From sequence record NC_031113.1: DNA of 44,513 nucleotides; one strand, written 5' to 3'. Shown one piece after another: positions 5,567 through 36,254 of the stretch. A program made the translations under genes and the position numbers. The notes under the pieces were generated by a model. It was not told the origin of the DNA. It saw only the letters and a program-made list of their open reading frames with translations, and did no database searches. The DNA is from Escherichia phage Gluttony. Position 1 is the first letter of the stretch; the number at the start of each line of letters is the position of its first letter.

Positions 5567-5606
5567 CTCTAAAATCCTCGATATGGCTAACCGGCACACT
5601 ATACCG

Positions 5607-5885: not shown

Positions 5886-6514
5886 TGTCGGCTTTTCCTT
5901 ACGGCAGCGATGGCAGGTCCGATAAACTTCTTCATTTCGTCCGGGGTAAACCGATCCCCGCGGGCTATGTTGCACTCTACGCAGCACGGCACGCAGTTAT
6001 CTTTCGTATGGCCTACTGCGTTGTCGAGTCGGTCCGCGCCATTGTCGCCGGTGAATCCGCAGTATGCGCACGGCTGAGAAGTAAGGCGCAGCACGTCCTC
6101 TGTAGTAAGGTCGGTGTTTAGCCCCTTCCTTTCGTCTGCCTTACGGTACTGAAAGAGTTTATAGTAAGCGCGGATCTCTGGTGTCCGGTGGTTGTACTCG
6201 CGGCGTGACTTATTAGCGCACGATCGGCATTCTTTACGAATATGTGACCCGTTTGCTTGGCTTCCTGGCCGGAAGTTTTCCGGCGTGAGCGGCTTGCGCT
6301 CACCGCACGTACGACATGTTACGATCTCCCCGGTGTACTCTCGCCATACTTCTCTCGGCGGCGCGCCTCTTTCCTTATCCCGTCTCTCTTTCTTATATGC
6401 CGCCATGCATTTGGCGCACCACGACTGGCCCTTGTTGAAAGCGGACTCATCTTTACCCGTATTACAACGCCCACAATGTTTCATATACACCTCGAAAAAG
6501 AAAACGCCAGACAA
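5882..6514 (-). CDS. HNH endonuclease with N-terminal zinc-finger repeats
   Basis: CAYCGF...GH...N..CCVECN HNH-type motif. Confidence 0.7.
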   Translation of the reverse strand: MSGVFFFEVYMKHCGRCNTGKDESAFNKGQSWCAKCMAAYKKERRDKERGAPPREVWREYTGEIVTCRTCGERKPLTPENFRPGSQANGSHIRKECRSCANKSRREYNHRTPEIRAYYKLFQYRKADERKGLNTDLTTEDVLRLTSQPCAYCGFTGDNGADRLDNAVGHTKDNCVPCCVECNIARGDRFTPDEMKKFIGPAIAAVRKSRQ

Positions 6515-6550
6515 TAATGCCCAACGTTTCCGCTAAAAGCAACATTTCCG

Positions 6551-8842
6551 CTACTTGCGGTAGCGATACATGCAATCGCCCTCTGCGGCAAGTGGGAAGC
6601 CTTTCGCCCAAATAGGCAGGTCGCACATCAGCGCGCAAAGCTCCTCTGTCGTGTAGTCGTCGGTGTCCGGCACTTCTGTGATCAATTCATCATGCACCGA
6701 TAGAACGATTTCATAGCCCGCAGCTTCAACGCCAGGCATTGACCAGGCGAGAATATCACGGCACAACGCCTGTACTATGTTCTCCGTCAGTTTGCCGCCG
6801 TAGGTATACTGGAAGCCCCACTGGCGCGTCGTCTGATTCTCGCCCTGATATTTAATGCGGGTGCTGGTGCGTTTCTTGCCGGTATCTTCGTCGATCTCGG
6901 TCGTCACTGACAGCGCAATGCCTGGATAACTCATAATACGCCCCGACGGCAACTCAATTTTCAACCACCACCCCGCGGCGTTCGGGTCGTCGCGTTCCTC
7001 GTCGAAGGTTGGGTCATGCTTCGCCTTCGTGCGGACTATCTTGAGCGCTTTCTTACCATCCGGGCGAACGTTCGCGCCAGCCCAGTACGCTTTGCCAGGA
7101 TTGCGGATTGCACACAACACCGCGTCCTCAAGCTCGGCCCAAAAGGCTACCGTCTTCGGGTGAGCCTCGCGCCACATGCGTTTAATCGCATCACACGTAA
7201 GCCATACGTTTTTCGGCAGTATGTAAGTCGGGCGCTCGTCCTTCTTGCCAGGCTTTGGCGGTCGCTTCGCTTCGTTAATGCGGGCGTACTCATAACCCCG
7301 TTTAGCCGCTGCCCAAATGTGATCGGGGAATGTGCCCTTCATGACGTCCGCCATCGCGTAAAGGTCGAGGCCCAGGTTTTTAGCGAACTGCAAGAACGCC
7401 GCGACGCCGCCACCATAGCCCAGCCCCAATTCGCACGCCTTACCGATCTGGCGTAAGTCCTTGCGGTTAGCTTTAATGTAGTCCGGGTCCAGGCCGAACA
7501 TCTTACCGGCAGTCTCACAATAGATATCGCGACCGGCCTTAAACACCATTAGCGCGGTTTTCTCGCCTGCGATCCAGGCAAGTCCACGCCCTTCCACGTT
7601 GGAGTAGTCCGCTACGACAAACTTCTTGCCCTTAGCCGGGATAATGCACCCGCGAACGGTCGAGGCTGTTAGCTTAGATATGTCATACGCCCAGTGCGCG
7701 GTCCCGCGTAACAGGGAATTGATGCCGTTGGTGAGCATGTGCGACCGGACCCAAAAAGCAACGTCGCTCTCGCCTTCGCGGCGCTTAATCTTCCCTTCGT
7801 GATCGTCGCTATACTCGCCGCGTGCCAGGTTTTGAGGCTGGAAGCCTTTACCCGCCCAGCGCAGCGTGCGCTTTGCACCACCATACTGAAGACACCCACG
7901 GCGGCGACCATCTGCGGATAAGCCGTTAACTAGCGGATTGTACTTAGTCGATGCCGTTGATGACGCTCCGAGGCGCATTTCTATAAGCGCTTTGCCTTCG
8001 TCGGGGAAGTCCGGGTCTTCAAGCAGGTCGTTAAGTGTGGATTTCTGCGCGTTGTGGATCGTGAACGCCGGGGCGATATCACGTAGGATTGGCAGGAAGT
8101 CATTGCCGGTCAGCTTACCGCCAAATCGCTCCCAGGCTTCCTCTTTCAATTCTTCCTTATGCGCCTGTACCGCTTTGATCGCAGCGCGCGCCAGGTCAAC
8201 GTCCACGTAGAAGCCGCGGTCGTTAATCAATTGGTCGATAAGCAGGATTTCGTCTTCCTTCGGCGTATTACCCCAGTCCGGTATGCGCCAATAGACTTCC
8301 CTCATCGCGATGATATCCAGCGCGGCATAGCGCAGGAATTTAGCCCACTCCTCGGGGTGCGTCTTGCGCGTGTAGCGGCGGATTTTGTAGGTCTTAGGGG
8401 TAGGCTTACAGAATCGTTTAATCAGCGCCTTGCCTGCCTTATCCTTCGCGTGCTCTGCGTCAACGCCCAGCACCTGACACTGCATATCGAGGCTACCCGG
8501 CAGCGCGTGCCGAAAGGCCATAATCATGGTATCTTCGATCTGGCTTACCGGCAGATCTATACCCCACTTCTCGCGAATAACAAGGCGGTCAAACAGGAGG
8601 CCGTTAGCCATCACTATTTTTGCTTTCTTGCGGGATACACGGCGGAGTGCCTTGCGCAGTTCACGCGGCATTGTTGGGGATTCAGTGGCATCCCATGTCT
8701 GCACGCGGCCTTCGTCGATGGCGTAGGTGCAAATCATAATCTCGGTGGTTTGGTGCTCTGCGTAGGCGTACGCCCCTACTTTCTTCAGGTCCACCCCGCT
8801 AAATGTCTCGGTGTCGAGAAACAGACGTTCGAAGTCTTTCAT
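6551..8842 (-). CDS. Family A DNA polymerase with 3'-5' exonuclease domain
   Basis: Exo I LDTETFS; motif A DYSNVEGR; motif B RKDLRQIGKACELGLGYGGG; motif C VHDE. Confidence 0.9.
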   Translation of the reverse strand: MKDFERLFLDTETFSGVDLKKVGAYAYAEHQTTEIMICTYAIDEGRVQTWDATESPTMPRELRKALRRVSRKKAKIVMANGLLFDRLVIREKWGIDLPVSQIEDTMIMAFRHALPGSLDMQCQVLGVDAEHAKDKAGKALIKRFCKPTPKTYKIRRYTRKTHPEEWAKFLRYAALDIIAMREVYWRIPDWGNTPKEDEILLIDQLINDRGFYVDVDLARAAIKAVQAHKEELKEEAWERFGGKLTGNDFLPILRDIAPAFTIHNAQKSTLNDLLEDPDFPDEGKALIEMRLGASSTASTKYNPLVNGLSADGRRRGCLQYGGAKRTLRWAGKGFQPQNLARGEYSDDHEGKIKRREGESDVAFWVRSHMLTNGINSLLRGTAHWAYDISKLTASTVRGCIIPAKGKKFVVADYSNVEGRGLAWIAGEKTALMVFKAGRDIYCETAGKMFGLDPDYIKANRKDLRQIGKACELGLGYGGGVAAFLQFAKNLGLDLYAMADVMKGTFPDHIWAAAKRGYEYARINEAKRPPKPGKKDERPTYILPKNVWLTCDAIKRMWREAHPKTVAFWAELEDAVLCAIRNPGKAYWAGANVRPDGKKALKIVRTKAKHDPTFDEERDDPNAAGWWLKIELPSGRIMSYPGIALSVTTEIDEDTGKKRTSTRIKYQGENQTTRQWGFQYTYGGKLTENIVQALCRDILAWSMPGVEAAGYEIVLSVHDELITEVPDTDDYTTEELCALMCDLPIWAKGFPLAAEGDCMYRYRK

Positions 8843-9009
8843 TGCTTTATCCTCACTACGGCGTCAGCGCTGCCGATCATGGAGAAGATGCCGTCTGACA
8901 GGGCAATCTCTTCGCCGTTGTTGCGAATCTCGGCAACTGTGAAATATTCCCCCAGTAGCTTAGACCATACTTTCATTCCGACTTTTACTTCGCTGGCTTT
9001 AATCCGCAT
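8840..9009 (-). CDS. Small hypothetical protein, 56 aa
   Basis: Hand-translated ORF (MRIKASEVKVGMKVW...) with an AGGA RBS; its stop overlaps the polymerase start. Confidence 0.3.
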
Positions 9010-9020
9010 TTTTCATTGTC

Positions 9021-9049
9021 CTATTAAAAAGCCCGCATTAAGCGGGCTT
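9021..9049 (-). terminator. Rho-independent terminator after the SSB-like gene
   Basis: 8-bp GC stem AAGCCCGC/GCGGGCTT followed by a T-run on the minus strand. Confidence 0.6.
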
Positions 9050-9067
9050 GAATAGTGGGCTTTGCCC

Positions 9068-9841
9068 TTAACGGCGGCGACGTTTACGTGGCGCTTCGTC
9101 TTCGTCGTCGTCCTCATCTTCGTCATCGCGTGGTTTACGACGTTTGCGAGGTTTTTCGTCGTCGTCGTCATCGCTGCGCTTGGACTTTTTGGACTTACGC
9201 GGCTTGTCGTCTTCGTCATCGTCATCACGACGTTTTGACTTTTTGGACTTACGCGGGCTTTCATCTTCGTCATCGTCGCCCAGGTCTTCGTCGGAACATG
9301 AAGACCCGCCACCGCCGAAGGCTTCTCCGTCATCGCGGAAGCGCATACCCAGCAGACCACAGCCTAAGCCTTTGCCGTTGGTATTGTTCCAGGCCCAAAT
9401 ATCTAAGGAAACGTTGCAATAGCAACCGGAATAGATTTCCTTCCCTTCGATTTCGTCGCCGTCGATGGTCAGACCCTGCTCCGTCTGCTTCTCGCCTTCG
9501 GAAGTCTGGATGATCGGCTGTTTGAATGATTTGGCATTGATGTACAGCTTTCCTTCAAACTCTTCCGTCACTTCTTCACGCTCGTCACCATCACGAACTG
9601 CACATTCTTTCGAATCCTGTGCGTAGTGGCGGTCCATCCACTTATCGGCGTTCTTTTCAGACTTCAGCTTTTCGGTGAGCACTGCGCGTGCCGCCGCTTC
9701 CACTTTGTCCACCTGCGGATCTTCTTTATCAAGAATAATCACCGCACGATATGCCGGTTTTTGTCCATCCTGTTTAGGGGTGTCACGCTCCCAAATTTTC
9801 GGGAAGCATACACGTACATTTTTCAGGTTGACTTTAGCCAT
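9068..9841 (-). CDS. Phage ssDNA-binding protein (DUF2815-like) with alternating acidic/basic C-terminal repeats
   Basis: MAKVNLKNVRVCFPKIWE N-terminus with GAGGAA RBS; C-terminal DDDEDE/PRKSKKSKR repeats. Confidence 0.55.
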   Translation of the reverse strand: MAKVNLKNVRVCFPKIWERDTPKQDGQKPAYRAVIILDKEDPQVDKVEAAARAVLTEKLKSEKNADKWMDRHYAQDSKECAVRDGDEREEVTEEFEGKLYINAKSFKQPIIQTSEGEKQTEQGLTIDGDEIEGKEIYSGCYCNVSLDIWAWNNTNGKGLGCGLLGMRFRDDGEAFGGGGSSCSDEDLGDDDEDESPRKSKKSKRRDDDDEDDKPRKSKKSKRSDDDDDEKPRKRRKPRDDEDEDDDEDEAPRKRRRR

Positions 9842-9937
9842 TTTCCAATTCCTCATTTCACATGTATCGGGGTTATTAGAAGCCACCCCGTCCGGCTTGG
9901 TTGCTAATGTACTTGGTTGCGTTTCCGCGGTCAAGTG

Positions 9938-10171
9938 TTATTTATTAAAAAGTTTTAAAATCAGGTCGAGATATTTGTGCAGCCACACCAGTGGCGGGCG
10001 GTGCACGTTGTTTTCCATCCAGTTCAAACAGGCTTCGTTATAGCCGTCGTCCCATAAGCGGGATGGGTGGCGAATCATCCAGGCCAGCGCCAGCAGACCG
10101 CCGCAGGTATGTACTACGAATCCCAGTGCCGCCAACGGCAGCACCATAATCATTGCCAGAATCTTATTCAT
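9938..10171 (-). CDS. Small membrane protein
   Basis: Two hydrophobic segments (ILAMIMVLPLAALGFVV, GGLLALAWMI). Confidence 0.4.
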   Translation of the reverse strand: MNKILAMIMVLPLAALGFVVHTCGGLLALAWMIRHPSRLWDDGYNEACLNWMENNVHRPPLVWLHKYLDLILKLFNK

Positions 10172-11594
10172 CGTTTAAATCCTCGTCGCTTGCTTCTTGC
10201 CATTCCGGGCGCGGGTCGTCAACTGGTGCCAGGACTGGTTTCGCAGGTGCACGCGTGATTTTATCTTGCAGCTTCGCCCACACTTTCGGTTTCTCATCCT
10301 TCAGCACCTTCTCGGCATCAGTAGGGCTGATTAATGATTCCTTGTACATCAGGTCGCGCTTGATCCGGGCCGTTGTGAATACAGCGATAACTTCGCTTTC
10401 ATCCTTCCACTTACGCGCACCTTCACGACCTGCTACCAGCTTCAGGCCCAGCGCTTCGCCGTCACCGGCTAACACTGCTTTGAATACGGCAGCCTCGATC
10501 GCTTTGATGTGCTGGCGCATGGTTTCCAGACCGTCGTAAGCCTTTTTCAATTCTTCCGTGGTCATTGCACCGGCTGGCGCTTCTTTCTCGCCACGCTTCG
10601 CACGTCGGGCCGCTTTCCGGGCTTCGCGGGCCATGTTCCGGTCGTGGTTTTTGCATTCTTCCTCGGTGGCAATGCTTACATCGTCGCCCAGGTCTTCGTC
10701 GGTTGCCGTTGGTGGCGTCATTGTGTCGATGGCGGCTTTAGCGCGGGCACTACATTGATCCGCAAATCGACACCACTGACACGCATCGGCGCTCGGACGG
10801 AAGTCTGCACGGGTGAGATTCTTCTTACCCTTAGCGAAGGCATCCAGGGCGGCTACTGCGCGTTTTGCTGCGTACTTGGCGAAGATTTCCAGTGCTTCCA
10901 CTGAAATATCCCACTCCGATGCGCCGCCGCAATACGGCTGGAAGATGACCAGGCGAACGGTGGTAATGTCGTACATCTTTTGCAGCTTGCGCAGCAGACC
11001 GAGCGCATACAGCATAAGCTGTTTGTTCTCTTTCGCCTCGACCTTATGGCGTCCGGTCTTCAGGTCGCCAACAATCAGCATGTACGTGCCGTCGGTCTTC
11101 TTCATGACCATAACCATATCGGCAGTACCGAAGGTTTTAATCACCTCGCCGTCAATCTCGTAGCCTTTGTGCAGGACGCGTGTCAGATCCGCGCGCATCT
11201 CGAGCTGAACAAACTCCGCCACTTCGAGGAGCGGTCGCCAGTGGTCGATGTACGCGTCGCACTGTTTCACCATATCGTCGTTGACCAGTACGCCGCCTTT
11301 CGGTGCTTTCGGGTGTGCCTTTACTGGCCCCTTTCCTTCGTTCTCGACGTAACACCCTTTATACGTCTTTGCGGTTATCAGCTTTTCACCGGCGATAATG
11401 CGGTTTAGCACGACTTCAGATACGGTGTGCATACTCGTACCGTTAATCGCGGCTTGCCCGGATTCGTTTGGGATATCTTTTTCTACCACCAGAGCGGCAG
11501 GGCAACCCATCCATTTTTTAGCACCGGACGGCCCGAGTAATGAGTGTTCGGTATTGCTACCGGATTGCGTCTTACGTTTTGGTTTAATCGCCAT
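10164..11594 (-). CDS. PD-(D/E)XK (RecB/Cas4-like) exonuclease with Cys cluster and C-terminal extension
   Basis: GTADMVMV, IVGDLKTG, QLMLYA motifs; CQWCRFADQC cluster. Confidence 0.65.
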   Translation of the reverse strand: MAIKPKRKTQSGSNTEHSLLGPSGAKKWMGCPAALVVEKDIPNESGQAAINGTSMHTVSEVVLNRIIAGEKLITAKTYKGCYVENEGKGPVKAHPKAPKGGVLVNDDMVKQCDAYIDHWRPLLEVAEFVQLEMRADLTRVLHKGYEIDGEVIKTFGTADMVMVMKKTDGTYMLIVGDLKTGRHKVEAKENKQLMLYALGLLRKLQKMYDITTVRLVIFQPYCGGASEWDISVEALEIFAKYAAKRAVAALDAFAKGKKNLTRADFRPSADACQWCRFADQCSARAKAAIDTMTPPTATDEDLGDDVSIATEEECKNHDRNMAREARKAARRAKRGEKEAPAGAMTTEELKKAYDGLETMRQHIKAIEAAVFKAVLAGDGEALGLKLVAGREGARKWKDESEVIAVFTTARIKRDLMYKESLISPTDAEKVLKDEKPKVWAKLQDKITRAPAKPVLAPVDDPRPEWQEASDEDLNDE

Positions 11595-11773
11595 TATTCC
11601 ACCCTTGTAAACTGGACAATTACATATTTCACATTAGCCAGGCCCGCTTTTTCGACTCGGCGCTTAACTTCATTTTGCGCGTCCACAAAGCAATTGCTTG
11701 CGTTGGTGTTTTCAACAATAAAAGAAGTGTGATCGTTTAATTCGTGGCAAGTTGCCATGACGAAGAATTTCAT
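11594..11773 (-). CDS. Small hypothetical protein, 59 aa
   Basis: ORF with GGGAGA RBS; start overlaps upstream stop (TAATG). Confidence 0.35.
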   Translation of the reverse strand: MKFFVMATCHELNDHTSFIVENTNASNCFVDAQNEVKRRVEKAGLANVKYVIVQFTRVE

Positions 11774-12024
11774 TATTTTGTCTCCCAGCGGTCGATTGTT
11801 TTTGCTTCGGATGCAACTGCGAAGCGAACATATTCCAGATTTGAATCCGCCCAAATATAAAAGTCGGGATTAATAAAGGTGGTGCGCTTAATTTGCGCGG
11901 GGGTGTTGCGGCGTTTGTCTATTACGGCAACGCGTGACTGAAAGCTGCCGATGCGTTCGAATAGCCAATAGTACGGGCGCTGGTCGCGGGAATCCACCGC
12001 CTCGATTAGCGTGAATCGTGCCAT
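11773..12024 (-). CDS. Hypothetical protein, 83 aa
   Basis: ORF track. Confidence 0.4.
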   Translation of the reverse strand: MARFTLIEAVDSRDQRPYYWLFERIGSFQSRVAVIDKRRNTPAQIKRTTFINPDFYIWADSNLEYVRFAVASEAKTIDRWETK

Positions 12025-12035
12025 TGTCTCGTCCT

Positions 12036-12065
12036 CTAAAAATAGGCCCGCAGATTAGCGGGCCG
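12036..12065 (-). terminator. Rho-independent terminator after the first leftward early gene
   Basis: GGCCCGC/GCGGGCC stem followed by TATTTTT on the minus strand. Confidence 0.55.
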
Positions 12066-12072
12066 GATAATA

Positions 12073-12579
12073 TTAATCTTCCAGTTCGAAATAAGTTTCG
12101 ACGATTTCTTTTAGCTCTTTGTGGAAGTCTTCGACGTCGTCATCTTCCAGCTTAGCGATTGATTTGATTTCGAACGCGTCCAGCAGATCATCAAATTCGT
12201 CGTTCGCGTCGTCGTCATCACCGCCCGCGATAATCGCGGCATACTGTTTGATCTCGTCGCGCATCTCCGCCAGCGGATCGGCATCTTTCTTGCCTTTGCC
12301 CTTCGCCGGTGCTTTTTTAGACTTAGCCGGTTTTGCGTCTTCGGCGTCTTCGTCGTCATCTTCGACTACTTCTTTTTTAGCCTTACCTTTCGCCGGGGCT
12401 TTTTTAGATTTAGCCGGTTTTTCGTCTTCGTCGTCATCTTCGACAACTTCTTTTTTGGCCTTAGACGGCTTCTTGTCTTCCTGCTTACCAACGGCAGCGC
12501 CAACGGTTTCATAATGCTTAGCGATGACTTCCAGTGCTACTACGCCGCGAGTGATCAGGTTTACGATTTGCTCAAACAT
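12073..12579 (-). CDS. Highly charged tandem-repeat protein, first gene of the leftward early operon
   Basis: Start at MFEQIV with GGAG RBS; two copies of KKEVVEDDDEDEKPAKSKKAPAKGK; polyacidic C-terminus. Confidence 0.6.
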   Translation of the reverse strand: MFEQIVNLITRGVVALEVIAKHYETVGAAVGKQEDKKPSKAKKEVVEDDDEDEKPAKSKKAPAKGKAKKEVVEDDDEDAEDAKPAKSKKAPAKGKGKKDADPLAEMRDEIKQYAAIIAGGDDDDANDEFDDLLDAFEIKSIAKLEDDDVEDFHKELKEIVETYFELED

Positions 12580-12775
12580 GGTATATCTCCGATTGGTTAA
12601 GTTTAGGTGTCGGCAGTTAACTTCGTCGGTGGCCTTAACATATTGCCAGGTTACGCGTTCTCCCGTTCGGGTAGTGGACCTGGTTATATAATCACGGTTG
12701 GGAATCCTGACACTTCGATCCGGCCCCTGCGTTGCCCCTCTCCAGTTTGCGTCCTGCATCCTGTCGACGGAGTGA

Positions 12776-12805
12776 ATGATAGATTGGTTGCAGGATGGGT
12801 GTCAA
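12776..12805 (-). promoter_or_regulatory. Leftward early promoter (TTGACA-18-TATCAT)
   Basis: Consensus -35 read on the minus strand, about 190 nt upstream of the ATG at 12579. Confidence 0.5.
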
Positions 12806-12816
12806 CAACTAATTTC

Positions 12817-12851
12817 AAAAAAAAAGCGCCGAGGCAAAATGCGACGGCGCT
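12817..12851 (-). terminator. Orphan minus-strand intrinsic terminator in the divergent control region
   Basis: AGCGCCG/CGGCGCT stem followed by nine T on the minus strand. Confidence 0.45.
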
Positions 12852-12921
12852 AACCAATAAGAGACAATGAGACGGGAATTATTATTACACGCGTGCGCGC
12901 CCGTTTCAATATCCAAAGGAT

Positions 12922-12950
12922 TTGACACCATGCAGTTTTAGGTGTAGTTT
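12922..12950 (+). promoter_or_regulatory. Rightward early promoter (TTGACA-17-TAGTTT)
   Basis: Perfect -35 hexamer about 35 nt upstream of the ATG at 12982. Confidence 0.5.
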
Positions 12951-12981
12951 CGTTGGTCATTAACCAACAGGAGACTGAATT

Positions 12982-13311
12982 ATGAATATCAAAGAAGCAA
13001 TTGAAGTGTTATCTAATGCAATCCGCGGCGAAGCGGGTAAATCCTGGTATTACACAAATGCGGTGGATACTCTGTTATTTGAAGTGTCCAGATTATCGCG
13101 TGCTGAGAAGGAGCTTACCGCGAAGCTGGAATTGCTCAACGGCACGGCAGCAAGCAAGCTGCAAAAACACAATGAAGAAATGGAAGAATACAAAAAACAG
13201 GTTATCCGTCTACGTGAGGAAGGTAAATCCTGGGCGATGATTGCCGAGTTGACCGGAATTAATCAGAGCACAGTGCGCTCCTGGGTACGCAATAATAAAA
13301 CTTCTAAGTAA
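12982..13311 (+). CDS. HTH DNA-binding protein, putative transcriptional regulator
   Basis: C-terminal KSWAMIAELTGINQSTVRSWV helix-turn-helix; coiled-coil middle. Confidence 0.5.
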   Translation: MNIKEAIEVLSNAIRGEAGKSWYYTNAVDTLLFEVSRLSRAEKELTAKLELLNGTAASKLQKHNEEMEEYKKQVIRLREEGKSWAMIAELTGINQSTVRSWVRNNKTSK

Positions 13312-13321
13312 GGCCACGGCA

Positions 13322-15586
13322 ATGAGCTTAATTAAATTCGCTGTAACAAGACCCGCTAAAAAAGGCGAAAAAGCCAGGGCGGAAAACTTCCAGATGACGA
13401 CCGATGAATTTTTCGAATTTATCAAAGATGCGAAAGAGATATCGTCGGTGCATATCAACAAGACGGAAGATAAAGCCGAGTATGCGCGCCGCAAGCGTAA
13501 GGCCGATGGCATCGTAGCGTATACCAGTGACGGCTTACGCCGCAAGACCAGTGCGGTGGACCGCTCGATCCTGTTCTTCGATATTGACCGTACCGACACC
13601 CGCACCCTACGCCGCTGCCGTAAGGCTTTCATCGACGCGGGGCTGGAGCACGTATTTCACACCACAACCGGCGACCGCCACCCGCTGAAAGGCGGCACGC
13701 GTTGCGCTCGTTTCCTGGTGCTCACCGACAAGCCTGTACCGGCTGAAGACCTGGGCCGCGTCCAGTACGCACTATTACACCAACTGGGCCTGTCAGATGT
13801 GGACTTCGATGATTGTACGAAAGACACAAACCGCCTGATGTACCTGCCACACCAGCAGTCTGTTATTAAGTGCCACTACGGCAAGCGTGCCCGCGTCCGT
13901 CGTCTGCTTCGCCTGGCGGATAAGTTGGGCGTGGAGAAGGAGGAAGTACGCCGCGAGCTTACCCAGGGCGACGACGCAGTGGCAGACGGCATTCTGGACT
14001 GGTGCTTCCAGGCAGGATTCGAGGAGTTATCTTCCGGTCGCGGTTATGAAGTGCCGTGCCCGAACGAACATCTGCACAGCGGCGAAGGGTCGACGGCTAT
14101 CATGGTCAAGGATGGCGAGATCCGTTTCAAGTGTATGCACACCGGCAACGAGTGTTGCTCGGAACTGAACAGACACCAGCACCTGGCGCTACGTCTTATC
14201 GGGATCCCGGACCACCTGAACGTCGAGCCGCACAACATGTCACGTAAGCAAATCGCCGCCATCCTTCCGGGACTGGACGATGAGGAAGTGGAATCGTGCT
14301 ATGAACATATCGTTGATGCGGTCGGAGACGGCGACGAGTACGGCGTGTGTACTGATGCAGACCTGGACAACGAGCCGGTCGCACTGTTCAGTAAGCACGA
14401 CCCGATCATCGAAGGCCTGGTCAACTTCAAATCGACCTGGTATCTCGCCGGTGAGTCGAACATTGGCAAGTCGTTCTACGTGCTGGGCCAGATGGCGTCA
14501 GTATCTGCCGGTATTCCGTTCGGCGGTGCGAAGGTCGTCCAGTCTCATTGCTTCTATTTCGATGCGGAAGGTGGTGAGGCCTCCAACCAGCGTAAAGAAG
14601 CACTGCAGATCAAATATGAGCACGACCTGGACAAGCTGCACATTATCGATCTGCAATCACGCGGCTGGGATATCACCAGCAAATCCGGCTTGCGTGAAGT
14701 TATCAGCTTCATCAACCGCACCGCTAACGGCGAGCCGGTTGGCCTGGTGGCGTTCGACTCACTCAACCAGACTGTTGCGCTGCGGTCCGCCGATGCAAAA
14801 CCGTTCGACGAGAATAACGCCAGCGATATGGGTGAAGTGGTCAAAGCGCTGAAGGCCATTGCGGAAAATACAGGCGGCAGTGCGGGCGTCATCCACCACC
14901 CGGCGAAGGGTGCAAACGGCAGCAGATCTCCCCGTGGGTCCGGCGCGCTGCATGGCGCTGTCGATTCTGCGTTCTTCCTGGAACAGCCGGACGACAACCA
15001 GCCAGGTCAACTCAACCTGTATCACGAAAAATCCCGTAACGGCATCAAGCAAGCGCCGCGCGGCTTCGTCCTGCTCAAGTGCAAGGTTAAGGTGGATCTC
15101 CGCAAGTCCGAGGCGTTCGAAGCCCACCAGTCCACCAGCACCGGGCCGGACTTCGGTGACGTCGTTGCCGGTTGGGACGTCAAGCCGATTGCCTCCACGC
15201 CACGCGACGAGACTCTTTACCTCGTACCGGTCGCCCTGGCACCGTTCGCCATTGAGCAGGCAAAGGCCGCTGGCAAGGCCGCAGTTAAGGAAGAGAACGC
15301 CGCAGGACCGCGCAACGAAAAAGAGAAAGTGCTTTATGCAGCGCTGGAAAAACTGATGGAAGATAACCCGGACCATACCGGATTCAGCAAATCGGCAATT
15401 GTCCGCCAGGCTGGGCTTGCGAAAGGTGGCACATCGACGAAGGCAATTGACGATATGGTCGAGCGCGGCGTGCTCGGTTTTTATACCGATCCGCACACCG
15501 GGGCCATCTATGGGTCGTCGAATATCGTCATCAAAACGAAGATACCCATCACGCTTTCGGCGACCGATGACGACTTAAAAGATTAA
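13322..15586 (+). CDS. Primase-polymerase (AEP-like) fused to a RecA/DnaB-like ATPase; replication initiator candidate
   Basis: FFDIDRTD acidic motif, Cys/His zinc cluster, Walker A GESNIGKS, Walker B FYFDAEGG. Confidence 0.7.
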   Translation: MSLIKFAVTRPAKKGEKARAENFQMTTDEFFEFIKDAKEISSVHINKTEDKAEYARRKRKADGIVAYTSDGLRRKTSAVDRSILFFDIDRTDTRTLRRCRKAFIDAGLEHVFHTTTGDRHPLKGGTRCARFLVLTDKPVPAEDLGRVQYALLHQLGLSDVDFDDCTKDTNRLMYLPHQQSVIKCHYGKRARVRRLLRLADKLGVEKEEVRRELTQGDDAVADGILDWCFQAGFEELSSGRGYEVPCPNEHLHSGEGSTAIMVKDGEIRFKCMHTGNECCSELNRHQHLALRLIGIPDHLNVEPHNMSRKQIAAILPGLDDEEVESCYEHIVDAVGDGDEYGVCTDADLDNEPVALFSKHDPIIEGLVNFKSTWYLAGESNIGKSFYVLGQMASVSAGIPFGGAKVVQSHCFYFDAEGGEASNQRKEALQIKYEHDLDKLHIIDLQSRGWDITSKSGLREVISFINRTANGEPVGLVAFDSLNQTVALRSADAKPFDENNASDMGEVVKALKAIAENTGGSAGVIHHPAKGANGSRSPRGSGALHGAVDSAFFLEQPDDNQPGQLNLYHEKSRNGIKQAPRGFVLLKCKVKVDLRKSEAFEAHQSTSTGPDFGDVVAGWDVKPIASTPRDETLYLVPVALAPFAIEQAKAAGKAAVKEENAAGPRNEKEKVLYAALEKLMEDNPDHTGFSKSAIVRQAGLAKGGTSTKAIDDMVERGVLGFYTDPHTGAIYGSSNIVIKTKIPITLSATDDDLKD

Positions 15587-15700
15587 AATTTGCGCGCATT
15601 GGTCGCCGATATGGGGATTCCCATATCGCTAGACGATTAAATTTTGCGCGCATTGGTTGCCATTTTGAGTGTTTTTATCTGGTCGTATTGGTTGCCGTGT
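15584..15700. repeat. Direct repeats TTAAA(A)TTTGCGCGCATTGGT(C/T)GCC x2 flanking the palindrome CGATATGGG-GATT-CCCATATCG
   Basis: Read directly downstream of the primase-helicase stop; a third ATTGGTTGCC copy near 15687. Confidence 0.6.
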
Positions 15701-15744
15701 AGTGTGAATATAGTGAATAGTTATGCAGTTTTATTGCATAAAGT

Positions 15745-15902
15745 AAGCGGGACAAAAAGCGGGACAAACAAGGGGCGGGACAAAGCGGGACAGCACCCCC
15801 GTCCCGCCACGGATGGCGCGGCTTCCAGAGGAGCGGGACAGCGGGACAGCACCCCAGTCTTTCAGACTAGACGGGGGTCAATGGCCCCCCTCGTCTGAGA
15901 CT
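15745..15902. repeat. GCGGGACA iteron-like array A with 3' hairpin module; putative origin or regulatory cassette
   Basis: At least six GCGGGACA copies at about 11-bp spacing, then CAGTCTTTCAGACTAGACGGGGG...CCCCCCTCGTCTGAGACTG; near-identical to 31965..32124. Confidence 0.6.
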
Positions 15903-16062
15903 GAATAAAATCCGGGGATTGCAAAATACACGGCAGCATGATGCTAAGTGCGGTCGTCGATGAACTAGGCAACCAATGCAGGTTGTATTATGCTGAGTGA
16001 AAATGCGGTTTGCAGTCACAGCAGATAGCGATCAACTTTTTCATGCGCGTGATTAATATTGG

Positions 16063-16091
16063 TTGCACCCTGCCTGGCGCCCTGCTATATT
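16063..16091 (+). promoter_or_regulatory. Sigma70-like promoter (TTGCAC-17-TATATT) formed by two TATTGGTTGCAC copies
   Basis: Spacing counted directly; 29 nt upstream of the ATG at 16120. Confidence 0.5.
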
Positions 16092-16119
16092 GGTTGCACA
16101 CCAACAAGAGGACTGAACG

Positions 16120-16425
16120 ATGAAAGCATTAATCTGGAATTACACATCAGCGGTCGCAGCGCTCTATGAAGCGAAGCACACAAACGGCAACGCCGACCAC
16201 GCACGCCAGGCTGTAATGTTCGCGCAGCAGGCAATCTTTGCAGCGTTCGACAACATGGGCGTCAGCCTGGATGAACTGGAACCATTGCGTGTGGCAATCT
16301 GCGAGTATGCGATGAAATTCGCCCGTGAGCGTCTTGCGTACCGGTTTGGCATCGGAGAGACGGCAGTGACTAACATCGCTCGCATCACGGCTCAGCGTGA
16401 GCTACACGCCTTACTTGCGAAATAA
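16120..16425 (+). CDS. Hypothetical early protein, 101 aa
   Basis: ORF track; RBS AGAGGA. Confidence 0.5.
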   Translation: MKALIWNYTSAVAALYEAKHTNGNADHARQAVMFAQQAIFAAFDNMGVSLDELEPLRVAICEYAMKFARERLAYRFGIGETAVTNIARITAQRELHALLAK

Positions 16426-16434
16426 GGGGCTAAA

Positions 16435-16704
16435 ATGGCACGTAGACGCGCTAAATGGTTATCCTGGTATATTCCCCTGCATAGCATCCGTTTATGGGCG
16501 CAGAATGCGATTGAGGGTGATTCTGTGTTCTGGAGCTATCGGGATGACGTCAAGCCGCTGACGCAGACCAAAATGCTGCACCAGTTCATGAACGAACACG
16601 GACTGCCGGTGAAAACATCATTGCAACCAATCGGCATCCGTATTACATTACGCCGTAAGCCAATCGTTGCGCAGGTTGGCAAACACAAGAGACTGAGCAA
16701 ATGA
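16435..16704 (+). CDS. Hypothetical early protein, 89 aa
   Basis: ORF track. Confidence 0.45.
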   Translation: MARRRAKWLSWYIPLHSIRLWAQNAIEGDSVFWSYRDDVKPLTQTKMLHQFMNEHGLPVKTSLQPIGIRITLRRKPIVAQVGKHKRLSK

Positions 16705-16853
16705 CACCAATGCAAAGAGCGCTAATGGCTGGATTCTCGCAGAAGTTTATTTCAGTAGACGACTGCATAGCTGATTATGAGATGGACGGCATCGCTACGG
16801 TATGCGATGGCGACTATAAGACTGTTGACGAGATCGAGGAGACTGAGCAATGA
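16701..16853 (+). CDS. Small hypothetical protein, 50 aa
   Basis: Hand-translated ORF (MTPMQRALMAGF...) with overlapping ATGA junctions at both ends. Confidence 0.3.
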   Translation: MTPMQRALMAGFSQKFISVDDCIADYEMDGIATVCDGDYKTVDEIEETEQ

Positions 16854-17404
16854 AATTACTATTCCGCAATAAACATAACGGGCTATTCTTCACCCCGATC
16901 GAAGTGCTGCCGAACTTTGTGCGCATGTACCATGAAGCCAGCGACCGCGTATACTGGTACAGGAAAGACACCCTGCATGAGCATTTGCAGGTTGTGCATC
17001 ACGACGTACGAGTAGGTGATGTGCTGCGTTGTGATGGCAATGACTACACCTGGGTCGTGAAGTCAGTCGGGAAGGAATGGATTACTATCGACAGCACTCT
17101 GGTTGCGGGCGCAACAATAAACCCCGCCACCCTGGTGAACTACACCCGCGTAGGCCGGAACTATGCACCTAAGCGCCCTGGCGTCGAAGCGAAAGCGATT
17201 ACCCGTACGGAGCACCCATATACCAAATACGACGAGAACAAGGTGCGCCAGCATATCGACAACGCCCGGAAAGCCATCACCCAGCAATGTGATGCGATGC
17301 GCCTGGCTAATCTGGACGCAGAGCGCTTTGGCATTGGTGTGATCCTGGTCTACCCGGACGGCAGCATGAAGTCTACCGATCCGCGCTCGGTGATTCAGAA
17401 ATGA
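16850..17404 (+). CDS. Hypothetical early protein, 184 aa
   Basis: ORF track; RBS GAGGAG. Confidence 0.5.
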   Translation: MKLLFRNKHNGLFFTPIEVLPNFVRMYHEASDRVYWYRKDTLHEHLQVVHHDVRVGDVLRCDGNDYTWVVKSVGKEWITIDSTLVAGATINPATLVNYTRVGRNYAPKRPGVEAKAITRTEHPYTKYDENKVRQHIDNARKAITQQCDAMRLANLDAERFGIGVILVYPDGSMKSTDPRSVIQK

Positions 17405-17541
17405 GTGCGACGGTCCGTGATATGCTAATGCATAACCGCTTTGAGGTTGGCGGTCGTGTATTCCGTAACTACTTCGTTGCGCGCGCCTGGGCGCGCCACA
17501 TTGGCAAACCAGAGGGGGCAATACGATGCTACACGATTTGA
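17401..17541 (+). CDS. Small hypothetical protein, 46 aa
   Basis: Hand-translated; start overlaps previous stop. Confidence 0.3.
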   Translation: MSATVRDMLMHNRFEVGGRVFRNYFVARAWARHIGKPEGAIRCYTI

Positions 17542-17813
17542 TATATTGGTTTGGATTGGGGTGCGCGACACTCTTTGCCACGGTGCTGGCGCTGTTGGTA
17601 TGGGTGTTCCTGATTTGGCCCGCGGTGGAAGCAGCCAGCATTACCCGCATGACGTTCCAGATATACAAGCGCCGTGGCATCACGGAGCACCCTACCAGGT
17701 TGCGCATGTGGTGGCTATGGTATCGCGATATGATCGGCGGGCGAATGTTCGAGGCCGTCCGATCGGAAGGGTGGGAGTGGAAAGGCGTCGGCAAGTGGTC
17801 CATTTTCGATTAA
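17526..17813 (+). CDS. Membrane protein, 95 aa
   Basis: Hydrophobic N-terminus LGCATLFATVLALLVWVFLIW. Confidence 0.4.
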   Translation: MLHDLIYWFGLGCATLFATVLALLVWVFLIWPAVEAASITRMTFQIYKRRGITEHPTRLRMWWLWYRDMIGGRMFEAVRSEGWEWKGVGKWSIFD

Positions 17814-17830
17814 TTATGCAAGCGTGATAT

Positions 17831-17865
17831 AGTCCCAGTGAGCTAAAACTTACTGGGACTTTTTT
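17831..17865 (+). terminator. Intrinsic terminator directly abutting the holin start codon
   Basis: 9-bp stem AGTCCCAGT/ACTGGGACT, 12-nt loop, then TTTTT and ATG at 17866. Confidence 0.5.
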
Positions 17866-18156
17866 ATGGATAAGCTAAACGAGTGGTTATTCGCCCTTGC
17901 GTGTCTTGCTGGTGGCTTCGTAGGCGCACGCATTCATGGCGAGGCAACGAAAGGGCCGCTAAACTTCGTGTTATATATCGTAGTTGGCTTCCTGTGTGCC
18001 ATCTTTGGTGCGCCAGCTATCGCCGAGTGGGCTGGCTTATCTGGCGAGCGCACTGTCGCCGGTTTGGGCTTCGTAACTGCAATCTTCTGGATGCCAATCG
18101 CCGACCGGGTCAGGGGGACTATTGCGTCGTTCCGACTTCCGGGGGGTGCAAAATGA
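17866..18156 (+). CDS. Holin
   Basis: 96 aa with three hydrophobic segments, directly upstream of the endolysin. Confidence 0.6.
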   Translation: MDKLNEWLFALACLAGGFVGARIHGEATKGPLNFVLYIVVGFLCAIFGAPAIAEWAGLSGERTVAGLGFVTAIFWMPIADRVRGTIASFRLPGGAK

Positions 18157-18398
18157 TTATCTCCGTCCTGTTGTTTGTTATCATCGGGGCTTCGTCCCTG
18201 TTTAACGTGTATGCGCCGTCCGTCCGGGATGGCTTTTTCGGTCGGGTGCTGTATCTGTTAACGGCAATGGTCTGTTTTATCGGATTGTTGCAAACCGGAG
18301 ACGTATCTGATACCACCAGGACCGCGTTAATATGGCTGTTTGCATTGCGCACGCTGCGTAATGCTGTTTTGAATGGGGTAAAACATGCGATTCAGTGA
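18153..18398 (+). CDS. Second small membrane protein of the lysis cassette (holin or antiholin-like)
   Basis: 81 aa, two TM-like segments, overlaps both neighbours. Confidence 0.45.
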   Translation: MIISVLLFVIIGASSLFNVYAPSVRDGFFGRVLYLLTAMVCFIGLLQTGDVSDTTRTALIWLFALRTLRNAVLNGVKHAIQ

Positions 18399-18876
18399 CA
18401 ACGGTCTACGATTTACGGCAGCATGGGAGACGTTCAGTCCAGTGCCGTATTTCGCGACTAAGAAAGAGCAGGCACGCGGCCTGTACACCTGGGGCTATGG
18501 GCATACTGGCACAAACCCGCCGCGGAGCATTACCCGCGCGGAAGCGCTTGAACTACTCAAGCGCGATGTGGCGTATGCCGAAAACTGGGTGAACAAGTAC
18601 GCACACCCTAGTATCAATCAGGCGCAATTCGACGCGCTGGTGGACCTGGTTATCAATGCCGGTCCTGGTCCGATCATGCCGGACGACGTCGCCGGAGACT
18701 TCGACGATGCGATCCGCCTGGGTGACTGGGCAAAGGTCCGTGCTACGCTGCCACAATTCCGCAAGCAAGGCGGGGCAGTGCTCAAGGGGCTTGTCCGTCG
18801 TGCAATCGGCAGGCAGGCACTATTTGATGGTAAGCAGTGGGATGTTGCCGAGAAAATCGGGCGAAACGCCGCATAA
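18385..18876 (+). CDS. Endolysin, phage lysozyme (GH24-like) family
   Basis: YTWGYGHTG and QFDALVDLVINAG...GLVRRAIGRQALF signature. Confidence 0.75.
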   Translation: MRFSDNGLRFTAAWETFSPVPYFATKKEQARGLYTWGYGHTGTNPPRSITRAEALELLKRDVAYAENWVNKYAHPSINQAQFDALVDLVINAGPGPIMPDDVAGDFDDAIRLGDWAKVRATLPQFRKQGGAVLKGLVRRAIGRQALFDGKQWDVAEKIGRNAA

Positions 18877-18892
18877 TACGAGGAGACACAGT

Positions 18893-34835: not shown

Positions 34836-34869
34836 TAAAATGGCCCTCACTACAACGTGGGGGCTTTTT

Positions 34870-35469
34870 ATGTCACAAGGTACAATCACACTAACGAAAG
34901 GAAGTAAGACCGTCACGGGCGCGGGAACGGCGTTCCTTAGCGAGATCGGGAAGGTACTCGTATTCGCCCGCATCGACGGCAACGACTACACCGGCAAAAT
35001 TGCGGCATTCAACTCGAACACGGTCATTACTCTGAAAGATAACTGGGCTGGGCCAACGAAATCCGGTGCGGCATATGAGCTAATCGAAGCACACGACCCG
35101 CGATCAAACGAATGGCCATATTACTGGCACATGCAATTGCAGGGCGGTGGCGACGTGCAGTTAGCTTTCCGGTCGGAGGAATTGCAATTCGGTAATGGCT
35201 ACGGACAGAACATCGCGGACGGCCCGAACGCCGAAACGAAACAGTTCCCCGTGCAATTCGTCGGGCTGACTACGGACAAATGGTGCAATCCTAAACTGGT
35301 TTACAACTTCCTTCGCGGTCACTTCGTAAAACCGTTTGTCGTCACCGCGCCGGATGGCGAAACAGGTTTATTCGTGGTCGAGCGTTCGAGCTTGTCGTAC
35401 ACGGACAACGGGCACTACACGGCAACGGTATCCGCCACCCTTAAGACTGCTATTGGATTCGTAAGATGA
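34870..35469 (+). CDS. Minor tail protein with lambda gpM-like C-terminal domain and a fibre-like N-terminal extension
   Basis: QFGNGYGQ resembles lambda M RFGDGYSQ as recalled; N-terminal ~70 aa resemble the tail fibre N-terminus. Confidence 0.65.
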   Translation: MSQGTITLTKGSKTVTGAGTAFLSEIGKVLVFARIDGNDYTGKIAAFNSNTVITLKDNWAGPTKSGAAYELIEAHDPRSNEWPYYWHMQLQGGGDVQLAFRSEELQFGNGYGQNIADGPNAETKQFPVQFVGLTTDKWCNPKLVYNFLRGHFVKPFVVTAPDGETGLFVVERSSLSYTDNGHYTATVSATLKTAIGFVR

Positions 35470-36254
35470 ATAAACTCTATCGTGAAGCGACGCGCTTTGA
35501 CCCCTCAGGACGCGTTCGCCTGATTCACATTGACGCGCAGGACGTGGAACCCGGAGACGGCGCGATCGGCGCGGGCCACCACTATTTTCATTACTGCTTT
35601 ATCCCACACACTGCGGAGGATATCGCTGCCGCGGGTGGTGACGAGGATAAGCTAAAACCTAAATCAATCTTCTTCGGCGGGCAGGAGTTCGAATTTTGGC
35701 CCTTCGATTTGTCCGGCCTTAACTTTTCCACATCGACGGCAGCAGAACCGCAACTAACAATCGTCGATATTGGCGGCATAATAACCCGGCTGTCACTGAA
35801 TCACGACCAGCTACTGGGCGCGAAGGTTGAAATAATCGACACATTCGCGAAGTTCCTGGATAACGGGTCGGACCCAGACCCGACGCAGAAACGAGTGCAG
35901 GAGTATTACATCGACTCGCAGGTCGGGCGCAATCCAGGCAAGCAAATCACCTTCGCACTATCCTCCCCCGCGGATATGGAAGGGCAGGTCGTTCCCCGTC
36001 GCCAGATCATGAACATGTGCGAATGGGCGCTCAACGGGAAGTACGCCAGCGGGGACGGTTGCACATGGAACCTTGCACAGCCTGGAATAAAGTATTACGA
36101 CGAGCGAGGTAATGAAGTCATCGCAATGAATATGGACCGATGCGGCGGCTGTTTGTCCGACTGCTATCTTCGTTTTGGGCAAGGGCTTGCGGATCCTAAA
36201 GCTGCGGTGCTGGACTTCGGTGGTTTTCCTGGGTCCAAATTAATCAAGGGGTAG
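35466..36254 (+). CDS. Minor tail protein, lambda gpL-like
   Basis: C-terminal Cys cluster GCTW...DRCGGCLSDC similar to the lambda L iron-sulfur region as recalled. Confidence 0.75.
   Translation: MNKLYREATRFDPSGRVRLIHIDAQDVEPGDGAIGAGHHYFHYCFIPHTAEDIAAAGGDEDKLKPKSIFFGGQEFEFWPFDLSGLNFSTSTAAEPQLTIVDIGGIITRLSLNHDQLLGAKVEIIDTFAKFLDNGSDPDPTQKRVQEYYIDSQVGRNPGKQITFALSSPADMEGQVVPRRQIMNMCEWALNGKYASGDGCTWNLAQPGIKYYDERGNEVIAMNMDRCGGCLSDCYLRFGQGLADPKAAVLDFGGFPGSKLIKG

Follow-up and report, generated by a model that had tools for sequence, protein, structure and literature searches.

Conserved ends, an evolvable charged linker and a structured leader RNA in a PHROG 3127 gene of Escherichia phage Gluttony

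The leftward replication and recombination operon of Escherichia phage Gluttony (NC_031113.1), whose 44,513-nt sequence is the window analysed here, opens with a gene for a 168-aa protein in which constraint falls on a short N-terminal helix and on an acidic C-terminal domain, predicted to fold as a three-helix bundle, while the conspicuous charged repeats between them form a disordered linker that varies in length and sequence. Most of the 5' leader of this gene corresponds to a structured, covarying RNA element which recurs in other siphovirus groups. An initial annotation, made from the letters of the sequence, had described a tandem-repeat protein and offered two roles for it, either an anti-restriction DNA mimic such as T7 Ocr or a nucleoid-targeting protein with histone H1-like blocks. 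We find both roles highly improbable and tentatively favour an adaptor or regulator that would act electrostatically in the T7-like replication/recombination machinery of the phage, a reading which we regard as possible rather than probable.

Results

The gene and its product

The open reading frame at 12579..12073 (-) is, judging from its sequence, a real gene under purifying selection. In an alignment of 17 related loci, the N-terminal 30 codons contained 13 columns with synonymous changes only and 3 with amino acid changes, and the C-terminal 70 codons contained 38 and 12, respectively. The sequence CGGAGA just 5' of the ATG is conserved in 16 of the 17 loci, the remaining one (L015) having TGGAGA. 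A longer reading frame, of 228 aa in the window and of 231-232 aa in the GenBank records of Opt212 and EE09, was considered and rejected: its extra 60 codons lie in the leader RNA described below, they are absent in 4 of the 17 loci and put out of frame in two others (L013 and L014) by an indel of 2 nt, and the substitutions in them are, in our own reading, mostly non-synonymous, which indicates that the longer annotation is wrong.

The highly charged composition, the tandem repeats and the acidic C-terminus which the initial annotation had ascribed to the product are all borne out by the reading frame, the repeat search and the charge distribution. The calculation it had proposed gave a pI of 4.54 and a net charge of -19 (D+E = 49, K+R = 30), unevenly distributed along the chain, with a near-neutral segment at residues 1-31, +3 at residues 32-98 and -21 in the 70 C-terminal residues (99-168).

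Phages Pride and Lust encode an identical hypothetical protein, and PHROG 3127 includes it as a member; the protein is therefore already catalogued and the window adds no new entity. Over 11500-13400, the surrounding region shares 99.9% identity with Escherichia phages Lust and Pride, and the Pride protein annotated at the matching position is 100% identical to the 168-aa protein. The same region matches 173 phage records, nearly all of them titled Escherichia phage, Shigella phage or Dhillonvirus, and every matching record that we opened belongs to the genus Dhillonvirus. The gene is labelled 'hypothetical protein' in each record inspected. Homologues of the protein fell into 104 clusters, most of them with full-length (~44 kb) contigs of Dhillonvirus size.

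Table 1 Features of the 168-aa gene and its surroundings in the window.
Feature	Position	Strand	Details
Coding sequence	12073..12579	-	168 aa + TAA stop; PHROG 3127 / pVOG1545 member
Shine-Dalgarno GGAG	12587..12590	-	ATG start 7 nt downstream
N-terminal amphipathic helix, residues 1-26, MFEQIVNLITRGVVALEVIAKHYETV	12502..12579	-	One of the best-conserved parts of the family
Disordered block-polyampholyte linker, residues 27-98	12286..12501	-	pLDDT <50 at 27-97; net charge +3
Partial third repeat copy	12450-12480		Repeat search
Repeat unit 1 (N-proximal; acidic block, then K/A/P-rich block)	12371..12450	-	Repeat search
Repeat unit 2	12284..12363	-	Reference copy of the repeat family
Acidic C-terminal domain, residues 99-168, net -21	12076..12285	-	Predicted three-helix bundle
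Intrinsic terminator GGCCCGC-TAATCT-GCGGGCC + TATTTTT	12036..12064	-	Begins 9 nt past the stop
Structured RNA element, most of the 5' leader, ~165 nt	12607..12771	-	Covariance-model match, 216 bits
Sigma-70-type promoter TTGACA-18-TATCAT	12776..12805	-	11/12 consensus positions
Candidate small RNA, upstream mini transcription unit	12815..12909	-	Extended -10 promoter, hairpin, nine T

Conserved ends and a variable linker

In the alignment of relatives, residues 1-30 and 99-168 are nearly invariant. Given that the ends are so well kept and the middle is hypervariable, a more fitting description of the protein is an evolvable polyampholyte tether that joins two conserved ends. The N-terminal helix (2-23), which had been overlooked in the initial annotation, holds five of the six columns that are invariant across the whole family (R11, V13, A15, E17 and A20) when Dhillonvirus, Guernseyvirinae and more distant members are aligned.

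Structure prediction, which had also been suggested from the start, was performed with AlphaFold2 and the alignment of relatives, and it returned a helix at residues 2-23 (pLDDT ~68), disorder at 27-97 and a bundle at 102-164 (pLDDT ~90) consisting of predicted helices 102-119, 123-135 and 146-164. A second model, computed for the shortest natural variant with a diverse alignment of the family, kept the bundle and gave the N-terminal helix a pLDDT of only ~45, so that the helix is not confidently packed onto the bundle even when the linker is short, and a four-helix bundle made of the N-helix and the C-terminal domain finds no support. The N-helix is probably an intermolecular contact. We also considered whether the segment GGDDDDAND could be an EF-hand-like metal loop, and rejected this on inspection of its spacing, which is off the canonical pattern; AlphaFold2 places the segment at the start of helix 2.

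The linker is where the repeats lie. These are units of 26 and 29 aa, KKEVVEDDDEDEKPAKSKKAPAKGKA and KKEVVEDDDEDAEDAKPAKSKKAPAKGKG, each with an acidic block followed by a basic one (KKEVVEDDDEDE-KPAKSKKAPAKGKA in the first and KKEVVEDDDEDAEDA-KPAKSKKAPAKGKG in the second), and their main difference is a 3-residue indel. In the DNA they appear as two 80-nt copies with 83% identity and a spacing of 87 nt. Among 100 close relatives the protein measures 115 to 179 aa in total and its linker 14 to 78 aa; acidic blocks are missing from the linker in 6 of them and number one in 38, two in 51 and three in 5, and the net charge of the linker averages +2 (range -5 to +9). The linker's sequence is unconserved in the alignment with distant members, and a basic patch directly before the C-terminal domain, GKGKK, is nearly invariant in Dhillonvirus.

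Expression signals around the gene

The promoter from which the initial annotation had the 168-aa gene transcribed as first protein gene is well supported, as it matches the consensus closely, is the top promoter match in window positions 1-19000, is conserved in 17 loci and has an annotated counterpart at the equivalent site in the HK578 record. The placement of the gene at the start of a leftward operon likewise agrees with the gene order in the loci that we read, where it heads the replication/recombination operon. The promoter suggests, in turn, that the gene may be expressed early; a homologue in Salmonella phage MB78, discussed below, bears a 'late protein' name. On the other side, the terminator, which the initial annotation did not mention, combines a GC-only 7-bp hairpin at 12064..12045 (-) with a T-run, is the top match in the same 1-19000 interval and is kept in 15 of 17 related loci; no terminator was found after the PHROG 3127 homologue of dunkel, the sole Jerseyvirus locus scanned. 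Being flanked by promoter and terminator, the 168-aa gene constitutes a discrete cassette.

The divergent region, of ~400 bp, has three promoter-like sites, and promoters are annotated at the equivalent positions in HK578. One of these sites is a rightward promoter, TTGACA-17-TAGTTT, read from the sequence at about 12922-12950 on the + strand. Another, TTGAAA-17-(TG)AATAAT at 12909..12881 (-), would drive a candidate small RNA of ~60 nt, with a hairpin (arms 12825-12836 and 12840-12851) that starts ~30 nt after the promoter and whose pairing is retained through compensatory changes in one related locus (L018). The 5' part of this RNA is complementary, over 14 nt, to the Shine-Dalgarno region of each divergent first gene. 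Among 607 Shine-Dalgarno-like sites, the duplexes, predicted at -18.0 and -18.8 kcal/mol, come only 26th and 14th, and the pairing is thus suggestive, short of significance.

A structured RNA element in the leader

The ~190 nt between the promoter and the ATG, also overlooked initially, are a structured non-coding leader, most of which belongs to one RNA element. The conservation of this element far exceeds that of the coding DNA beside it: of 153 records, 73 have at least 99% identity and 50 have 95-99%, whereas the DNA of the C-terminal domain has 90-95% identity in 112 of 120 records. Homologues were found in Tempevirinae (Drexlerviridae), in Sortsnevirus, in Serratia phage MQ-4, in Escherichia phage Alux-21 and in two IMG/VR contigs, and scored 95-103 bits with a covariance model derived from the copies in Dhillonvirus. 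In the six annotated records the homologues are intergenic and co-oriented with the flanking genes, which differ from record to record, and all homologues start ~7 nt after a -10-like hexamer. Four of the 17 Dhillonvirus loci have a filler of 18-22 nt in place of the element. Judging from this distribution, the leader RNA is a separable module, common to at least four siphovirus groups and not specific to the 168-aa gene.

Evidence for the fold comes from several sides. The positions assigned as partners can pair in 94.6% of the cells of the alignment, as compared to 76% after shuffling and 25-39% when partners are slid, and in 19 of the 35 pairs both partners vary; covariation scores 0.459 against 0.154, with none of 500 shuffles reaching 0.459. 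The alignment was fitted to the covariance model, which favours the structure. However, single-sequence folds of the variable arm independently yield the same shape in every group, and G-U pairs occur on the leader strand only. No match to the element was found in Rfam 15, in the literature when searched by sequence, or in the E. coli genome.

We considered the possibility that promoter, leader RNA, gene and terminator form an antitermination layout similar to that of lambda N. This reading is weakened by the four Dhillonvirus loci without leader RNA, which retain both gene and terminator, and by dunkel, which shows no terminator.

Family, distribution and gene order

The full-length protein matches the PHROG 3127 profile (E = 8.3e-52, residues 1-168 on profile positions 1-178), an entry whose function is listed as unknown in the catalogue, and three distant members (P0114, P0108 and P0118) match the phrog_3127 profile as well. 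PHROG 3127 / pVOG1545, which includes Q9T1Z8 of phage MB78 and Gp46 of Edwardsiella phage eiAU, comprises true homologues with the same architecture; they differ from the 168-aa protein in the sequence and length of the linker, and some have two C-terminal domains. When a profile of the C-terminal domain was run against 1.84 billion representative sequences, 36 proteins were recovered at E <= 1e-3. The full-length members that we read consist of N-helix, charged linker and C-terminal domain, with the exception of one (P0137) which has no N-helix motif; among the matches the helix takes the form M[LF][ED][KQ]..L.[ET]R[FG]V[VI]A.E.IA, and the linkers of the full-length ones span 36-100 aa with near-zero net charge. 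Three members of the family have two C-terminal domains in one protein.

By tblastn, relatives were found in 251 phage records, from Guernseyvirinae (Jerseyvirus and Kagunavirus) and others, the latter being phages of Enterobacter, Serratia, Raoultella and Klebsiella. Within the phage collection, only siphoviruses have the family, namely Dhillonvirus, Guernseyvirinae and their relatives, and the bacterial side, 185,579 species genomes, gave a single locus, on a phage-like contig of a Taishania assembly. A structure search of BFVD returned only family members at E <= 0.001, among them Q9T1Z8 (UniProt) from Salmonella phage MB78, from which several GenBank records take the name '13.88 kDa late protein'; no originating experiment for this name was found in the accessible literature.

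The genomic setting of the family is alike in the loci that we read. The order in Opt212, bob, Pride, dunkel and a further locus (L022) runs from primase-helicase through a small HTH gene of opposite orientation to the gene of the 168-aa type, small ORFs and a PD-(D/E)XK nuclease, and the PHROG 3127 gene occupied the same genomic position in the Guernseyvirinae loci examined. In Dhillonvirus, the HTH gene and the PHROG 3127 gene are separated by a gap which bears the promoters. DNA polymerase I comes after the nuclease in dunkel, phiEap-2, EE09 and the window. In the window the two are separated by a gene for a gp2.5-like SSB, which in L022 comes after the nuclease, and in phiEap-2 an HNH endonuclease gene stands in front of the PHROG 3127 gene. 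The divergent HTH neighbour matches HTH_23 and Sigma70_r4_2; some GenBank records call it 'nuclease inhibitor gamma', a name for which Pfam offers no support.

Detection in infected cells

Published proteomes offer some information on the abundance of the protein. Whole-cell samples taken 25 min after infection with phage EE09 yielded no more than four proteins of the phage, CDS29, CDS40, CDS56 and CDS61, and CDS56 is missing from the published table of proteins in cell-free lysate (PMC10673088). CDS56 (34845..35543), whose annotation includes the false extension, has 95% identity to the 168-aa protein, and CDS61 matches in position the gp2.5-like SSB gene of the window. As CDS56 was seen in infected cells and is missing from the lysate table, the 168-aa protein would be abundant and is apparently non-structural, on the basis of this EE09 orthologue.

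Discussion

What the protein does can be approached through its neighbours and its charge. The reading that we favour, tentatively, is that it acts within the T7-like module which its gene precedes, namely primase-helicase, PD-(D/E)XK nuclease, gp2.5-like SSB and DNA polymerase I. The N-terminal amphipathic helix would dock on a partner or self-associate, the acidic bundle would bind a basic, probably nucleic-acid-binding, surface, and the disordered, near-neutral linker of alternating acidic and basic blocks would join the two, lengthening or shortening through gain or loss of ~29-aa units, which are the repeats that the initial annotation saw. With a strong promoter of its own and a terminator near its stop, the transcript of the gene would probably be more abundant than those of the downstream genes. 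Both the binding action and its target we infer, beyond a gene, an architecture, a conservation, a synteny and a set of signals that can be read directly.

Charge patterning in the same operon points in this direction. The gp2.5-like SSB (9934..9068 (-)) ends in a C-terminal tail of alternating acidic and basic blocks, ...DDDEDESPRKSKKSKRRDDDDEDDKPRKSKKSKRSDDDDDEKPRKRRKPRDDEDEDDDEDEAPRKRRRR, and a six-frame scan of the 44.5-kb window found just four segments with at least 12 acidic and at least 10 basic residues per 40, three of which are in the replication operon, in the 168-aa protein, in an internal linker of the nuclease and in the SSB tail. This shared charge-block pattern is among the grounds on which we favour the adaptor reading. 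Primase-helicase, nuclease and SSB also have a common [ST]D[DE]DL motif at or near their C-termini, as is the case in L022, and the motif is absent from the 168-aa protein, which speaks against the adaptor reading. The replication proteins T7 gp2.5 and gp4 have charged C-terminal tails, and they and the SSB of this phage thus offer a precedent for charge-based, disordered interaction segments; the 168-aa protein differs from them in having no OB fold, no enzymatic domain and no [ST]D[DE]DL motif. Also against the adaptor reading, what can be said of the mechanism comes from composition, position and co-occurrence, and since the replication modules of Dhillonvirus and Guernseyvirinae are homologous and the phages may simply be related, the co-occurrence may reflect vertical inheritance and not function. 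In addition, the predicted three-helix bundle is too generic to indicate any partner, and a first-gene position after an early-type promoter fits a host-takeover or anti-defence protein equally well.

The main alternative, which we consider somewhat doubtful, is that the protein is a DNA-mimic decoy directed against a host DNA-binding enzyme other than classical type I restriction, such as RecBCD, or against H-NS/HU. The acidic bundle would then fill a DNA-binding site and the N-helix would supply dimerisation or avidity, a mechanism that we hold to be just as doubtful. A charge of -21 over the 70 residues of the C-terminal domain is what might suggest a mimic, although charge by itself is weak evidence, and the three members with two C-terminal domains are as expected of a binding module. 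The protein is also abundant and made from a strong host-type promoter, although the dunkel homologue, which has no terminator of its own, suggests that strong over-expression compared with the operon may not characterise the family. The location near the phage recombination nuclease is suggestive too, as lambda gam adjoins exo/bet and T7 gene 5.9 adjoins gene 6, and lambda Gam and T7 gp5.9 are RecBCD-inhibiting DNA mimics encoded in recombination modules. Both are, like the 168-aa protein, small and acidic or helical, with genes that lie next to a recombination exonuclease and are expressed from an early promoter. However, no homology to either was detected, as Pfam gave no Gam match and a profile search of PDB sequences returned neither Gam nor gp5.9, and inhibition of RecBCD by the 168-aa protein is putative. 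More generally, no similarity in sequence or fold to known DNA mimics was found, and a three-helix bundle of 65 aa is small beside them. All PDB matches had E > 0.05 (ribosomal protein bS20, designed proteins, a histone acetyltransferase and a DegV protein).

It is unlikely, yet worth stating, that the 168-aa protein and the SSB tail act as block polyampholytes which, through multivalent electrostatic contacts, form a replication/recombination hub or condensate tuned by the number of repeats, or that the tethered bundle represents a new class of nucleic acid mimic with no relation to those known.

Distinctly unlikely is a role, together with the divergent HTH protein, as a modulator of host RNA polymerase or in the switch from early to late transcription, for which acidic helical factors such as T4 AsiA and region 1.1 of sigma-70 provide an analogy. 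The pairing with the HTH gene is conserved, and no RNA polymerase gene was seen in the annotated genome of the Dhillonvirus EE09, for which reason the phage presumably relies on the host polymerase. However, the argument from neighbourhood is weak, no similarity to known polymerase-binding factors was found, and the Sigma70_ner match of one distant member is weak and compositional.

The two roles put forward in the initial annotation fared worse. An Ocr-like protein which blocks type I restriction-modification is very unlikely. T7 Ocr (gp0.3), the type I restriction inhibitor, is likewise small and very acidic, and its gene is the first behind an early host-type promoter in a virulent coliphage; no sequence or fold match linking it to the 168-aa protein was found, and in the latter only a 70-aa domain is acidic and is tethered to a conserved helix by the disordered linker. 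There was no match to Ocr (Pfam PF08684) in a Pfam scan at E <= 10, which gave only weak, compositional matches below cut-off (BUD22 and DUF6669 among others), and searches of Pfam, NCBIfam and PADLOC for ArdA, ArdB(KlcA) and catalogued anti-defence and defence proteins gave only compositional noise at E > 0.01. Across Pfam, NCBIfam, PADLOC and PDB sequences, no characterised family of any kind was matched. Furthermore, the BASEL study contrasts Dhillonvirus and Drexlerviridae with the restriction-resistant Queuovirinae, reporting that Dhillonvirus is sensitive to type I and type II restriction relative to the latter (PMC8594841). The Dhillonviruses of that collection all belong to the group that carries the gene (one cluster, P0054, is the protein of phage TheodorHerzl), which argues against an effective Ocr-like activity.

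A histone H1-like or nucleoid-binding role, in which the K/A/P-rich blocks would bind, condense or coat DNA, is similarly hard to credit. Histone H1 and some bacterial histone-like proteins have basic tails rich in K, A and P, the local composition of blocks such as KPAKSKKAPAKGK, and the near-invariant GKGKK patch ahead of the C-terminal domain in Dhillonvirus also speaks for such a role. Nevertheless, each basic block is paired with an acidic one, the linker averages +2 in a protein of -19, natural variants make do with zero to three acidic blocks and with linkers down to 14 aa, and in the wider family the sequence of the linker is not kept. In contrast to linker histones, the protein has no globular domain, as no winged-helix or other DNA-binding domain was found in the Pfam scan or in the AlphaFold2 model, and there was no Pfam linker-histone match.

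Identity with either of the two characterised small proteins of Dhillonvirus was also considered and rejected. Ksap1, the trigger of KpAvs2, has 74 aa and is encoded between methyltransferase and phosphatase genes (PMC11564622), and anti-Tmn is ORF35, with a beta-sheet domain, whereas the homologue of the 168-aa protein in SM_S22 is CDS0050 (PMC11846954).

We have described a clear anatomy for a protein that was already catalogued: the repeats are an evolvable linker, and constraint lies on a short N-helix and an acidic three-helix bundle. Its detection as one of few phage proteins in infected cells, together with its one conserved position across two groups of phages used in therapy and biocontrol work, makes it a cheap and well-defined object for deletion mutants and pull-down assays. 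Of the two results, that on the leader RNA may be the more original, as this is a phage-specific, covarying element that is found in several siphovirus groups and is absent from Rfam.

Leader RNA element

The 5′ leader of the gene encoding the PHROG 3127 member contains a structured RNA element of about 165 nt with strong covariation: both sides had changed in 19 of 35 pairs, and pairing was retained in 94.6% of cells. The element is hyper-conserved in Dhillonvirus and is absent from four of the 17 Dhillonvirus loci compared, and homologues were found in Tempevirinae, Sortsnevirus, Serratia phage MQ-4 and phage Alux-21. Every copy begins just downstream of a −10-like hexamer, and the placement in annotated records is intergenic. 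No match to the element was found in Rfam, in the literature or in E. coli genomes.

Table. Coordinates of RNA elements, genes and motifs in the window and in loci carrying homologous copies of the leader element.
Feature	Locus	Position	Strand	Description
Leader RNA element	Window	12607-12771	-	About 165 nt; covariation, conservation
Leader RNA element	L024	843-1003
Leader RNA element	L025	1475-1635
Leader RNA element	L040	1794-1953
Leader RNA element	L041	1801-1965
Leader RNA element	L042	1794-1953
Leader RNA element	L043	1804-1961
Leader RNA element	L031, L036, L039
Candidate small RNA	Window	12815-12909	-	About 60 nt; extended -10 promoter, then hairpin and T-run
Terminator hairpin	Window	12045-12064	-	Same site compared in L001-L019
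Divergent neighbour gene	Window	12982-13311	+	109 aa
gp2.5-like SSB gene	Window	9068-9934	-	C-terminal tail part 9068-9320
[ST]D[DE]DL, primase-helicase C-terminus	Window	15560-15586	+	SATDDDLKD
[ST]D[DE]DL, PD-(D/E)XK nuclease C-terminus	Window	10164-10190	-	ASDEDLNDE
[ST]D[DE]DL, inside PD-(D/E)XK nuclease	Window	about 10690-10715	-	TATDEDLGDD
[ST]D[DE]DL, SSB tail	Window	about 9290-9315	-	CSDEDLGDDD

Candidate small RNA, terminator and divergent neighbour

Upstream of the leader lies a candidate small RNA whose promoter is of the extended −10 type (TTGAAA-17-TG-AATAAT). Downstream of this promoter come a hairpin (GCGCCG..CGGCGC), for which covariation was seen in one relative (L018), and a run of nine T. 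Each of the two divergent first genes has a Shine-Dalgarno region (at 12586-12599 and at 12960-12974) with complementarity to UCUCUUAUUGGUUA, the 5′ part of the candidate. The energies of the two duplexes, ranked 14th and 26th among 607 Shine-Dalgarno-like sites, were not outliers.

The terminator hairpin that follows the gene has a 6-nt loop that reads TAATCT in some genomes and AGATTA in others, the two orientations that an inversion of the palindromic hairpin would give. The terminator is missing from this site in EP23 and slur05, where the stop codon is directly followed by different, apparently coding sequence.

The divergent neighbour is labelled, depending on the record, as a transposase, a 'DNA recombination nuclease inhibitor gamma' or an HTH protein. 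Of these labels, Pfam backs no more than an HTH at the C-terminus (HTH_23, Sigma70_r4_2, HTH_28), so the product is probably a small transcription regulator.

Doubtful host assignments

A Guernseyvirinae-like replication module, consisting of primase-helicase, HTH, PHROG 3127 member, nuclease and SSB, was found in a 19-kb contig (NZ_JACVEL010000022.1) of the genome assembly of Taishania pollutisoli (Bacteroidota). The contig appears to stem from phage contamination and not from a prophage resident in this organism. The host labels of two further records also look doubtful, namely MG065648.1 (Campylobacter phage A144), which matches the present E. coli Dhillonvirus locus along the whole query (93.3% and 98.5%), and OQ221563.1 (Acinetobacter phage NJ01), which matches this locus over a 52-nt core (92.3%).

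Charged tails and a shared motif in replication proteins

The C-terminal tail of the gp2.5-like SSB, about 70 aa long, alternates acidic (DDDDEDD) and basic (KPRKSKKSKR) blocks, a pattern much resembling the linker of the PHROG 3127 member. Only four mixed-charge segments of this type occur in the whole window, three of them within the operon headed by the gene of the PHROG 3127 member. The SSB tail also carries the motif [ST]D[DE]DL, which recurs in the primase-helicase and twice in the PD-(D/E)XK nuclease, and a similar pattern is found in the Guernseyvirinae-like locus of the Taishania assembly. This motif may be a docking motif common to the replication proteins.
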